This document shows positions 49,018-60,464 of a DNA stretch of 64,000 bases, one piece after another. The first letter of the stretch is position 1, and every line of letters begins with the position of its first letter. The notes below the pieces were generated by a model. That model was not told the DNA's origin and did not search any database. It worked only from the letters and a program-made list of their open reading frames with translations. Position numbers and translations under genes: made by a program. Origin of the DNA: Octopus vulgaris (Eukaryota); assembly GCA_951406725.2 (NCBI GenBank), contig OX597834.1:32798001-32862000 (forward strand), given 5' to 3'.

Positions 49018-49096
49018 TCTCTGAAGAGATTCATCTTACGATTTTAATTTTATAAATTAATTATCTTAAGATTTCTGAATCGAAACAGCTGTCAGA
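49018..49096 (+). ncRNA. Type I hammerhead motif with canonical core and GUC site
   Basis: UCU; CUGAAGA (49021-49027); GAUUCA/UGAAUC stem II; GAA; palindromic ACAGCUGU; C49093; AGA. Confidence 0.8.
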
Positions 49097-50329
49097 GATG
49101 TTGTCATATTTTATAATCAACAAATAATTGTATTAATTACCTCTCCAATTCTTCCTTATTCTCTAAACATAAATATATGAACCATGTTTTATATGGTTAC
49201 CCTATGGTTGAACTTTCTGTGAATTTTCGTTGGATTTATGATCCCTTAATGAAATTAATTACCTTTACTTGATTATGTATATATATATATATATATATAT
49301 ATATATATATATATAACATAACATTCGCATGTAAGACAAGGTATTCACATATAAATAATTACCTATCTTTGTTATAGACGAAAAAAGAGAAACTTTTATA
49401 CAAAAATGTAATTACGTAATACATATATATGTATATATATATATATATCACCACATACACACACGCGCGCATACACACACACACACATACATATATATAT
49501 ATATATATATATATATATATATATATATATATATATATATATATATATATATATATATATATATATATACATATATATATATACTAAGATACACACACGC
49601 ACACACATACACTCTGTCTGTCTCTCTCTCTCTCTCTCACACACACACATATATATACAGAGAAAGAGAGAAAGAGAAAGAAGGAGGGAGAGAGGACGGT
49701 GGAAGAAAGAAAGGTGTGTCTACATTTGCGTGTATTTTTTATGTGTGTATGTTTCTGTGTGTGTGTGTGTGTGTGTGTGTGTGTATGTGTGTGTGCATTT
49801 GTTTATTTGCGTGTTTTATGTGTTTGGGTACTTGTTCGCGAGGTGGTGTGTGGGGGAGTAACTGTGGGAATGTTACTGCGTATGAGGGTGGGTGCAGGTG
49901 GGTGTAGGGTGTGTGTGTGTGTGTGATTGTTTGTGTTTGTGTATGTGAAGTTGTGTGGGAGTAACTGGGTGAATGTAAATGTTTATGGAGGTGTGTATGT
50001 GTATGTGTGTGTATGTGAATGTGTGTAAGTGTGTGTGTGTGTGTGTGTGTGTGTGTGTGTGAGTGTGTGGAGGGGAGAAGTGTCGGTGTGTTTAATGTGA
50101 GGACAAAAGCTTACATGTTTATTGCACACACGTTTTTCCTGTCCACACCTACAACTGACAATATGAGAAATAAGTGATTTCATGCATTAACAGCGTTGAC
50201 AACAACAATAACACAAGAACGACGACGACGACTACGACGACAACAACACCAACAACAGATGTAGCAATAAGAACAGGAACTAAAAAAGCAAACAGGAACA
50301 ACAATAACAACAACAGCAGCAGCAGCAGC

Positions 50330-50750
50330 AGAAGAAGAAGAAAAAGAAGAAGAAGAAGAAGAAGAAGAAGAAGAAGAGAAGAAGAAGAAGAAGAAGAAGA
50401 AGAAGAAGAAGAAGAAGAAAAGGAGGAGGAGGAGGAAGAAGAAGAAGAAGAAGAAGAAGAAGAAGACAAAGAAGAAGAGGAAGGGGAGGAGGAGGCGGAG
50501 GAGGAAGAAGAAGGAGAAGACAAAGAAGAAGGTGAAGAAGAAGAAGAAGAAGAGGAGGAGGAGGAGGAGGAGGAGGAAGAAGAAGAAGAAGAAGAAGAAG
50601 AAGAAGAAGAAGAGGAAGGGGAGGAGGAAGAGGAAGAAGAAGAAGAAGAAGAAGAAGAAGAAGACAAAGAAGAAGGTGAAGAAGAAGAAGACAAAGAAGA
50701 AGAAGAAGAAGAAGAAGAATTGGAAGAAGAAGAAGAAGAAGAAGAAGAAC
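50330..50750. repeat. (GAA/GAG)n purine tract
   Basis: Seen directly; flanked by (AAC)/(CAG)/(TAG) repeats. Confidence 0.95.
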
Positions 50751-52215
50751 AAAGAGGACAACAACAAAGAGGACAACAACAACAACAGCAGCAGCAGCAG
50801 TAACAACAATTGCGATATGAACGACAATAACAACATCAACAACGACTGCAGGAAAAAAAGAAACAACAGCGGCAAAACAGGAACTAAAAATAAAACCAAA
50901 GCAACAACCACAAAAGCAAAAACAACAAGAACGTTAAAAGTAGCAGCAGCAGCCGTAGCAGAAGCAGCAGTAGAAGCAGTAGCAGTAGTAGCAGCAGCAG
51001 TAGTAGCAGCAGTAGTAGCAACAGTAGCAGCACCAACAGTAGCGTAAAAATGAACACGGGTTGCAAAAATTATAACGGTAATTACTAAAACACACACACA
51101 CACACACACACACACACACACACACACACACACACACACACACACACACACACACACACACACACAAAGGAGACATAAAATGCAGAAAAGCAGAAATTGA
51201 TAGATTATAATTTAATTATTTCCAACAGCTGTTTCAGTAGGAACAAGCATAATTAATTCTATAATTACGTAATTAAGGTATATAAGTAATGGTTTCAAAA
51301 TTTGGCACAAACCCAACAATATTAGGGGAGGGGTTTAAGTCGATTATATCGACCCTATTGCTTAATTAGTATTATGTTATCGACCCCGAAAGGATGAAAG
51401 GCAAAGTCGACCTCGGTAGCATTTGAACTCAGAGCGTAAAGGCGGACGAAATGTCGCTAAGCATCTTGCCTGGTGATGTAACGATTCTGCCAGCTCGCGG
51501 CCTTATTAAGATACATAATTAATGAAAATTATAATTAAAAGCACTGCTTATCCCAGATCCTGAAACTTTAATTAGTGTGACGCACACACATACATACAGA
51601 CCCACACACGTGCGCACCCACAAACTAACCTTTTAGTGAGGGAGTACGGCGCTACCCAAGTTCGTTGATAGACCTATAGAGATAGGTGAAGGGGAGGAGG
51701 GAGGAAAGGGGAGAGGAAGAGAAGGAGGTAATCTCAAACCAGAAACCGTGCCTAATAACTGCTACGGAATGAACTCTGCTAAAAGGCACCCAATGTGAGA
51801 GGAAGTACAAATGGGTGTGAGGTGAGGAATTAAGTGTCTCACCCAGAGAGGCCATAGCAGTTTTCGAATTCCGAACCCCAAAAGCCGGAACGAATAGTAC
51901 AGAACATCCGTTTTGTCATTCTCACAATTCCGCCAATCCACAGCCTCGAACAGCTTATCTTTTCATTGACCCAAATACGAGAAGCAAAATGAGCTTCGAC
52001 TGGATTTGAAATCAGGGCACAGAACAAATTACTCACAAAGGTATCACAAGGCAGGCTTGGTTGCGTGTTAAGTAGCTTGCTTGCCAACCACACGGTTCCG
52101 GATTCAATCCCACTGAGCGGCACTACGGGCAGGTGTCTTCTACTATACCCTCGGGCCAACCAAAGCCTTGTAAGTGGATTTGTTAAACGGAAACTGAAAG
52201 AAGCTCATCGTATAT

Positions 52216-57528: not shown

Positions 57529-59155
57529 AGGACAGCTATATATTATTCAGAACGTATGAAACAAGAACTTACTAAAAATCTATAAATAAACACGGACGTT
57601 TAGGAGAAATTTATGAAAATACTTCGGACAGGCAAAGGATTAATGAATTTAATAATTTTTACTGCATCTTGCAACACTGCATTCAGATCTGCAGGAACTT
57701 TTTAAAGACATAAACGCCTCTCGGTGGATCATATAATGAGTGAAGGTGACAGGATTTTGGCTTTACAGATTTGATTTTAATTTGAAATCCAGTTTTCTCC
57801 GTGAAATAACTGTCGTAACAATGTGCTTTCAGGTTGAGTCCCACTGCGCGGTACTTTGTGCAAGTGCCTTCTATTTATAGCCCCAGGCTGAGTGAATTTG
57901 GCTGACGGAAACTGCGTGGAAACCCGTCGTATCTATCTATCTATCTATCTATCTATCTATCTATCTATCTATCTATCTATCTATCTATCTATCTATCTAT
58001 CTATATGTATGTATGTATGTATGTATGTATGTATGTATGTATGTATGTATGTATGTATGTATATATATATATATATATATATATATATGAACATAGATAT
58101 GTACATATGTGTGCATGTATATGTATGTATGTATGTATGTATGTATGTATGTATGTATGTATGTATGTATGTATGTATGTATGTATGTATGTATGTATGT
58201 ATGTATGTATGTATGTATGTGTTTGTGCTTGTGTTTATTGGTAACGGCTTGTTTATCATCTTGTAATCTAAGGATTCAGCAAAAGAGACCGCTAGAATAA
58301 CCGCGAAACTTTAAAAAGAAATAGTGTGTGTGGCGGTGTGGCGGTGAGAGAGGCGACTTGTTGTACTAAACCTTTCAAAGCGGTGCTCCAGCATGACCAC
58401 AATCCTATGCCAGAACCAAATAAAAGATAAAAGAGAAGAAGACTTATTTCACTTCTTGCAGGAAGTTCCTCGCCATATTGGTTACCATTAATTTCTGAAA
58501 TACGAAAAGCAACAAAATTATTTGAATGAGTAAATTTCCTTAATTCACAAACTTCAATTTTTTTCGGTAATTCTGCGAACAATTTCTGTCATTTTAATCG
58601 TTGCTGTTAACACAAATTCTTCGCCGATGCTGGGTGGATTTTTTCTTTTTTTAAATTTTCTAACTGTTGCATTTAAATAACCAATATCAAAGGACGTCCT
58701 TAAGTATTTCACTGTGTCGATTCTATGAATAGGTTTCTCAGAAGATTGCTTCTGTTTACTGAAATATTCCAATAGCCTTTCAAAATGAATAAATACAACC
58801 CAAAAAAGACCTCTATAGGCTTACTGCTCGTATAGGAGGAATGTCTTGAATCAAAACGTGTCTTTTTCCTTTTTTGCTTTATTAGCTTCATACTCTCGGC
58901 CGTCAAACAATCGTTACAAATTAAGCAGACAGACATTTCTTAGTTATTTTTCAAAGCAAAAGTAAATCCATATTGGAAATAATAACATTCATTACACATT
59001 TCCTCTTTTCTTTACGTTTTTGCTTTGTTTTTTTTTGTTGTTGCTTTTTTTTGCTTTTTTCCTGCGAAATTTTGTCTAAATCTAAATTTGGTTGTTTTGC
59101 TTGTTTCTGTGTGAGTTTAATGGTACTCCTTTAAAGTCGGTGGCACTTCAGTTTA

Positions 59156-59870
59156 TATCATCAACACCATCATCATCATCATCATCATCATCATCATCAT
59201 CATCATCATCATCATCATCATCATCATCGTCGTCGTCGTCGTCGTCGTCGTCGTCGTTATCATCGTCATCATCATCATCATCATCATCGTCATCATCGTC
59301 GTCATCATCATCATCATCATCGTCATCATCATCATCATCATCATCATCATCATCATCATCATCATCATCATCGTCGTCGTCGTCGTCGTCGTCGTCGTCG
59401 TCGTTATCATCGTCATCATCATCATCATCATCATCGTCATCATCGTCGTCATCATCATCATCATCGTCATCATCATCATCATCATCATCATCATCATCAT
59501 CATCATCATCACCATCACCATCATCACCATCATCTTTATCATCGTCATCATCATCACCGTCATTATCATCAACACCATTATCACCGCCACCGCCGCTGCC
59601 AATACCATCATCATCGTCGTCGTCGTCATCATCATCATCATCATCATCATCATCATCACCACCACTACCGCCGCCGCCACCACCGCCACCGCCGCCACCA
59701 CCACCACCACCACCACCACCACCACCACCACCACCACCATTACCACCATTATTACCACCATCACTGCTGCTATTATCATCATCATCATCATTATCATCAT
59801 CGACGTCGTCGTTGTCGTCGTCATCATTATCACCCTATCCCTGTCGTCATCATCATCATCATCATCACTA
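59156..59870. repeat. (TCA/TCG/CCA)n compound trinucleotide tract
   Basis: Seen directly. Confidence 0.95.
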
Positions 59871-60426
59871 CGAACCCCAGCTAACGCCAACACAACTGCC
59901 GCCGCCGCCGCCGCAGATATTAAACTGCAAATCAAAAATTACACTTGTATTAAAAATTGAGCAGAATGATGGTAAATTTCGTAGTAAAAAAATCAAAAAT
60001 AAAATCGTATGTTTTCGTTTTCTGTAATGCTTTAGGAGTGGCGGAGTTGCGGGCGGATGGAGCCACGTCCACGTAGAATGAGATTTAAAATGCGAAACCT
60101 TTCATTTTCATTTTCATATTTATCGACACGGTCTTCAGTAAATTTTAAGATTGTGGATTTCTTTTTGAATGTATAACTGCAAAAGTATTCATACACACAT
60201 ACATGCATGCATAGATACATACATACATACATACATACATACATACATACATACATACATACATACATACATACATACATATATATATATGTATATATAA
60301 GTGCAAACAAGAGAGACAGAGAAAGGCAGACACAAGGAAAATGCCACTTATATTTGAACACTATACAAATATTCCTTTAAAAAAACTTTTCTTTTAATTT
60401 TTCTAAATTTAATTATTTAATCGTTA

Positions 60427-60464
60427 CAGTTGAAAAGGTCTCAAAATGACCGAAACCGGTACTG
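60427..60464 (+). ncRNA. Minimal hammerhead motif with U3-A8 core variant
   Basis: CAG-UUGAAAA-GGUC-UCAAAAU-GACC-GAA-ACCGGU-A-CUG. Confidence 0.72.

Follow-up and report, generated by a model that had tools for sequence, protein, structure and literature searches.

A hammerhead motif with an inverted 3-8 pair as the family state, probably self-cleaving, of a young Penelope-like retrotransposon in Octopus vulgaris

Results and discussion

Here we describe a hammerhead RNA motif recovered from a microsatellite-rich window of the 2.8-Gb Octopus vulgaris genome (the whole stretch of 64,000 nucleotides that was analysed: GenBank assembly GCA_951406725.2, contig OX597834.1, our C21, positions 32,798,001 to 32,862,000). 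Positions 3 and 8 of the hammerhead core pair with each other in the active conformation, and the four cores that a preliminary description had located in the window (CTGAAGA at 49021, TTGAAAA at 60430, and GTGAACA at 53397 on the forward and 53367 on the reverse strand) are all present, typifying a C3-G8, a U3-A8 and a G3-C8 state of this pair. We consider that the G3-C8 motif is probably the family hammerhead of a young Penelope-like retrotransposon (PLE), for which slow self-cleavage as a dimer, with the inverted pair, would be the likely mode of action, and that the cutting fold of its RNA is likely to be under selection.

A family-wide G3-C8 core

In an intact G3-C8 copy, stem I has 7 bp and stem II has 5 bp; the core GUGAACA is followed by an extra G, and GAAA, a palindromic stem III (AAUAUU) and U17 complete the motif. 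This extra G, which separates A9 from stem II, had been overlooked in the preliminary description. The existence of stems I to III, on which that description had made its case depend, was established at 7 of 7 loci with a long open reading frame (ORF), where intact copies also satisfy a strict descriptor of the type I fold, which demands stems I and II, GAAA, a palindromic stem III and UH. Both these loci and the column counts in 131 arms bear the expected U4, G5, A6, A9, G12, A13, A14, A15.1-U16.1 and H17, and the family likewise has a stem I, a stem II opened by G10.1-C11.1, an extra base after A9 and a palindromic stem III. The consensus letters C3 and G8 are missing, whereas a Watson-Crick 3-8 pair is present (as G-C), and we class the family as a hammerhead variant and not as a consensus member.

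Genome-wide, with exact agreement demanded at the fixed letters, the motif pattern recovered 4,464 matches with C8, 240 without C8 and 100 without G3 (counted by eye, 66 A, 26 T and 8 C, with 10 of the 100 also lacking C8), and 4,374 of the 4,704 matches are G3-C8. None of the 4,704 is C3-G8, all 8 copies with C3 being C3.C8. G3-C8 is therefore, as had been supposed, a family letter pair and no private mutation, and the same holds for U3-A8 (99 of the 100 matches listed). The state is retained across several loop II variants and in 6 of the 8 older ORF-bearing loci that have a readable core (12 examined). The element recurs in contigs of four sequencing runs carrying four organism labels, in which the X1, X16 and X18 loose-end strings read GUGAACA and no difference at positions 3 or 8 appears among the rows listed, to which 51 unlisted rows must be added.

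The motifs are not attributable to chance, because backwards-pattern controls gave 0 matches (as compared to 1,962, 1,855, 240 and 4,464) and three block shuffles gave 0 for a related descriptor that has 47 distinct matches in 839 kb of window and loci, most of the latter chosen for carrying these motifs. The prediction that standard searches would pass over the family was confirmed: Rfam (E<=10) returned no hammerhead match for an intact copy, and this result, together with the G3-C8 core, implies that CUGANGA descriptors and Rfam miss whole families.

The host retrotransposon

At 7 of 7 long-ORF loci the G3-C8 motif lies 982-1,038 nt past a stop codon, and a full element (L138/L158) has a repeat-ORF-repeat layout (repeats 4,261 nt apart), in which the motif stands in the terminal repeat, the ATG of the ORF follows 92 nt after G3 and the motif occurs again about 1 kb past the stop. 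A branch-point/AG-like sequence is found directly 5' of the motif there, and may point to splicing. The ORF matches Pfam GIY-YIG (25.5 bits against a cutoff of 22.6), and YVDD, the mark of a reverse transcriptase (RT), and CxxxCxxC were seen by eye in its translation; the Pfam RT model gave no match on this ORF, the RT call being based on YVDD. As in endonuclease-positive (EN+) PLEs, a single ORF combines RT with a C-terminal GIY-YIG domain, and we observed tandem pseudo-long terminal repeats (pLTRs), inverted truncated copies, an optional tail and microsatellite targets; insertions stop within the first codons, at one of two tail ends, and lie mostly in (TA)n. The translation also contains, before the endonuclease, the CX2-5CxxC linker typical of the Neptune/Nematis clade, to which, judged by this linker, the element may belong. 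Judged from its sequence, the host is a young PLE with RT and GIY-YIG domains.

Overlap with coding sequence was ruled out as a cause of the swap, as the ATG stands 92 nt beyond G3; in L124, an open frame that crosses the motif is not continuous with the element ORF. The same locus carries a tandemly duplicated ORF (L124:72-906 and 5000-5948) that seems, by its motifs, to resemble an alpha-1,3-fucosyltransferase, each unit having a G3-C8 palindrome. In L154, L207 and L232 the paired repeats of a single insertion bear loop II sequences of different subfamilies, and in L154 and L232 they nevertheless have a common change just upstream; such mixtures hint at template switching inside the hammerhead.

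Related lineages and the origin of the swap

Two lineages carry a homologous motif, with C3-G8, at the equivalent location ahead of a similar N-terminus (common pattern, 1,374 matches): lineage A, with 1,312-aa frames at 54% amino-acid identity to the G3-C8 element, and lineage B, which is tied to it by the hammerhead and an N-terminal peptide only. C3 is found in 12 of their 14 loci, and we infer that C3-G8 was ancestral to the G3-C8 family, since C3 is the letter of 53 of the 56 published representatives. In an alignment of 8 hand-picked, mutually related rows, 5 of 11 pairs (3-8 included) changed on both sides and 96.6% of cells pair (22-48% in slid controls), the three damaged cells being those of the window arms. 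All between-lineage changes in paired columns other than 3-8 keep pairing, and the unpaired U4, G5, A6, A9 and G12-A14 are kept across lineages only 54% identical in protein.

The preliminary description had deduced selection from covariation among the three window motifs. This part does not stand, since they belong to separate families whose hammerheads are not shown to be close homologues; the deduction survives in the related lineages, for one event only. Two lineage B loci (L005 and L215) read G3.G8 with the upstream stem I also altered, and may be truncation junctions.

Proposed function and competing explanations

We propose that the ancestral C3-G8 pair would have been flipped once, via two transversions, and that the flipped pair would have been retained because the active fold needs a 3-8 pair. 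In a tandem transcript, two copies of the motif would pair with each other by the AAUAUU palindrome, probably assisted by the element's protein, and a cut after U17 would process the precursor RNA ahead of the ORF; the motif's anatomy and location are observed here, and we extrapolate the dimer, the help from protein and the cut from passages of PMC4209133 and PMC11167929. For the hammerhead of a lizard PLE, the latter source reports that cleavage is recovered in part by a C3G/G8C double mutant and that protein is required (PMC11167929; the rescue also in a passage of PMC8495972).

A number of observations weigh against this proposal. Stem III is weak (the AAUAUU duplex has -0.2 kcal/mol, as compared to -8.3 for ACCGGU) and was not formed in the predicted dimer folding. 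Of the first 100 matches that lack C8, 47 have the mismatch G3.G8 (by extrapolation, ~113 of 4,704, ~2%), and one tandem element (L232) has G8 in both repeats. Position 9 is C (CUGAUGC) in 11 of 11 long-ORF loci of lineage A (L143-L153). An uninterrupted full-length ORF was not seen among the elements (a stop and a frameshift interrupt that of L138, and in L136 the 998-aa frame has no start). The 3-8 covariation in the alignment amounts to a single C-G to G-C event, because the rows are related, and 48 of 500 shuffles also reached 5 pairs. Finally, hammerhead mutations had no effect on insertion of the lizard PLE in the in vitro assays described in PMC11167929.

G8 occurs on three subfamily backgrounds in 25 loci (in both arms of 3 of the 8 readable inverted pairs), by which a single G3.G8 subfamily was ruled out. 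A control C in a stem showed 75 changes, 6 of them C>G, and this comparison excludes a general tendency of C to become G after this CAG context. The genome-wide C8>G excess of the family is ~19-fold over the control C (L180-L211, L232 and L234). As for C9, other copies of lineage A have A9, and the C9 copies form its youngest, sister subfamily.

The strongest competing explanation, unlikely in our judgement yet deserving weight, is that the hammerhead-derived motif no longer needs to cut and serves as a structural or protein-binding fold of the terminal repeat, its 3-8 pair having flipped under relaxed constraint. It would accommodate the G3.G8 excess on three backgrounds and in both repeats of L232, the C9 of young lineage A, the weak stem III and the unblocked insertion of ribozyme mutants in vitro (PMC11167929), and Naiad PLEs are described, in a passage of PMC8557442, as thriving without hammerheads. 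It sits poorly with the conservation of U4, G5, A6, A9 and G12-A14 at such protein divergence, and with the change of both 3-8 partners to a Watson-Crick pair precisely where pairing occurs in the active conformation.

That a master copy drifted to the complementary double change by chance, the 3-8 pair being unselected, we regard as very improbable. One event was sampled, and position 8 is more changeable than its neighbours (240 changes, against 100 at G3 and 75 at the stem C); on the other hand, wherever else the lineages differ in paired columns the pairing is preserved, the independent U3-A8 family has a Watson-Crick pair at 3-8 as well, and G3-C8 lasted through several subfamilies. Hardly credible is the reading of the palindrome at 53.3 kb as a miniature inverted-repeat transposable element (MITE) with GUGAACA as a chance word in its arms: palindromes of ~258 bp are indeed dispersed genome-wide and the window copy has a 13-bp duplication, but single-arm copies are many, the palindrome centre varies, the arms are unequal, the sequence runs on into the RT/GIY-YIG ORF, inverted truncated copies are given as typical of PLEs (passage in PMC8557442), and the pLTR-ORF-pLTR copy L138 refutes it, fixed terminal inverted repeats without a link to RT not being found. 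Non-long-terminal-repeat retrozymes (short non-coding tandem hammerhead units) were also rejected: the motifs are dispersed and tied to a coding element, and no tandem array over hammerhead motifs appeared among the 150 rows listed of 222.

Returning to a selected, self-cleaving G3-C8 hammerhead, we entertain tentatively, with somewhat less confidence than we place in the proposal itself, a broader version, by which the family would be the first natural, fully inverted hammerhead family that is active, with cleavage chemistry selected in PLEs, and would belong to a hidden GUGANCA class elsewhere in eukaryotes; the excess of G3.G8 could then be the mismatch intermediate of the swap or a product of general-acid hypermutation.

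Relation to described hammerheads and PLEs

The minimal type I hammerheads of PLEs (Cervera and De la Pena 2014, PMC4209133) resemble the G3-C8 family: they lie in the terminal repeat, have a short stem I, G10.1-C11.1, an additional base behind A9 and a palindromic stem III, are cut at U-H and have inverted pairs nearby; they differ in that none of the 56 representatives of their Fig. S3 starts with G3 (53 C and 3 U, by eye). The same source gives a U3-A8 variant in Schistosoma with ~1,300 matches and, among the hosts listed, no cephalopod. Natural 3-8 covariation was noted by Perreault et al. 2011 (PMC3088659), who name U3-A8 and, in the passages concerned, do not name G3-C8. PAc, a Poseidon element of Anolis (Frangieh et al. 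2024, PMC11167929), is reported to have, like the octopus element, a hammerhead near the ORF start, AT-rich targets and two tail ends within the first codons. In PAc, however, G3-C8 is an engineered, partly active rescue mutant, whereas here it is the natural state, and the octopus hammerhead stands wholly before the ATG, unlike that of PAc (PMC11167929). Neptune/Nematis-type EN+ PLEs (Craig et al. 2021, PMC8557442) are described with the same C-terminal GIY-YIG, CX2-5CxxC linker, tandem and inverted copies, tail and (TA)n targets.

The preliminary description suggested that the G3-C8 family may be undescribed. U3-A8 in natural hammerheads was already published (passages in PMC3088659 and PMC4209133), whereas natural G3-C8 was not found in the literature searched, which did not cover the survey most pertinent here (Lunse et al. 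2017) or Przybilski and Hammann 2007. The sole textual match to 'G3-C8' in that literature concerns an engineered variant (passage in PMC3884650). The family is a real and apparently unreported variant of a known ribozyme, with predicted activity. For PLEs, a review passage in PMC8557442 allows that hammerheads may be no more than parasites of the element, and a natural double swap in a lineage of more than 4,000 copies offers evidence, at the sequence level, for a selected active fold. Moreover, G3-C8 copies, their C3-G8 relatives and the G3.G8 copies supply a natural test set. The surprise is limited, since the laboratory C3G/G8C swap is partly active and U3-A8 is known in nature.

Hammerhead motifs and other features of the window

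The three core types of the window belong to three separate genome-wide repeat families, and their proximity is incidental (Table 1). The strict descriptor matches only at 49021 (C3-G8) and 60430 (U3-A8), which have the full core, stems I and II, palindromic stem III and UH, both without an extra base after A9; they are complete minimal type I hammerheads. The family of 49021 is old and dispersed (~80% identity), reads CTGAAGA in 26 of 38 aligned arms (29 loci) and shows no ORF of its own within 1.5 kb at these 29 loci (blastn); its hammerhead is of the ordinary C3-G8 type. With any letter allowed at positions 3 and 8, the 60430 motif has 1,855 exact genome matches, and its family copies are 99-100% identical. 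At 10 of 30 loci, frames of GIY-YIG-type C-terminus with a CxxxxCxxC linker end 619-1137 nt upstream. The 60430 site is an intact U3-A8 hammerhead of a PLE family distinct from the G3-C8 one.

The G3-C8 arms of the window itself are damaged: both fail the strict descriptor, having G at 11.1 in place of the C of G10.1-C11.1, and the forward arm has also lost U16.1 of A15.1-U16.1. C11.1 and U16.1 are intact in other family copies of an alignment of 23 distinct loci. The reverse arm matches only with a slipped stem II, and both arms are predicted to be inactive. The C11.1>G change and an 11-nt deletion are common to the truncated repeat and its inverted copy, a dead-end insertion inside an older inverted repeat, and no remnant of a PLE ORF was found in the window (tblastn, two proteins).

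Table 1. Hammerhead motifs and associated repeats in the window
Feature	Position	Strand	Details
Minimal type I hammerhead, C3-G8	49018..49096	+	strict descriptor, family alignment; stem I 49018-20/49094-96; core 49021-27; stem II 49028 to 49081, long AT-rich loop; GAAA 49082-85; palindrome ACAGCTGT 49085-92; C17 49093
Older inverted-repeat structure, host of the G3-C8 insertion	52690..53625		central hairpin 52963-53045 (83 nt, near-perfect)
13-bp target-site duplication	left 53248..53260, right 53569-53581		
Inverted 5'-truncated copy of the G3-C8 element terminal repeat	53258..53388	-	ends at shorter tail end
Inverted G3-C8 hammerhead motif	53325..53374	-	G3 at 53367; sole damage C11.1>G (53342); palindrome AATATT and U17 intact
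Damaged G3-C8 hammerhead motif	53390..53439	+	stem I 53390-96/53433-39; core 53397-403; extra G 53404; stem II 53405-09/53418-22 with C11.1>G (53422); GAAA 53423-26; U16.1>A at 53431
Terminal-repeat 3' part, G3-C8 Penelope-like element	53390..53571	+	90% to full element L158; includes first ORF codons and longer tail end
5'-truncated terminal-repeat fragment, young Penelope-like U3-A8 family	60299..60524	+	94.7% to L031; (TA)n on both sides
Minimal type I hammerhead, U3-A8	60427..60464	+	strict descriptor, family matches; stem I CAG/CTG; core 60430-36; stem II GGTC/GACC; GAAA 60452-55; palindrome ACCGGT 60455-60; A17 60461

A search of the window with Rfam gave no hammerhead among the best 150 of 410 matches, nearly all of which were microsatellite or hairpin matches to microRNA models. 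Two further C3-G8 minimal hammerheads, of another family (CUGACGA with an extra A), lie at 60772 (forward strand) and 48723 (reverse strand). A frequent repeat resembling a minimal hammerhead occurs on the reverse strand near 43724 and 63489, with degenerate copies near 52560 and 53673; its best parse (CUGUUGA, in which A6 is replaced by U, an extra A, a 4-bp stem II, GAAA and ACGU) is possibly another natural core variant. Furthermore, positions 19933-22595 are occupied by tandem arrays with a 184-185-nt unit, which we presume to be similar to a short interspersed element.

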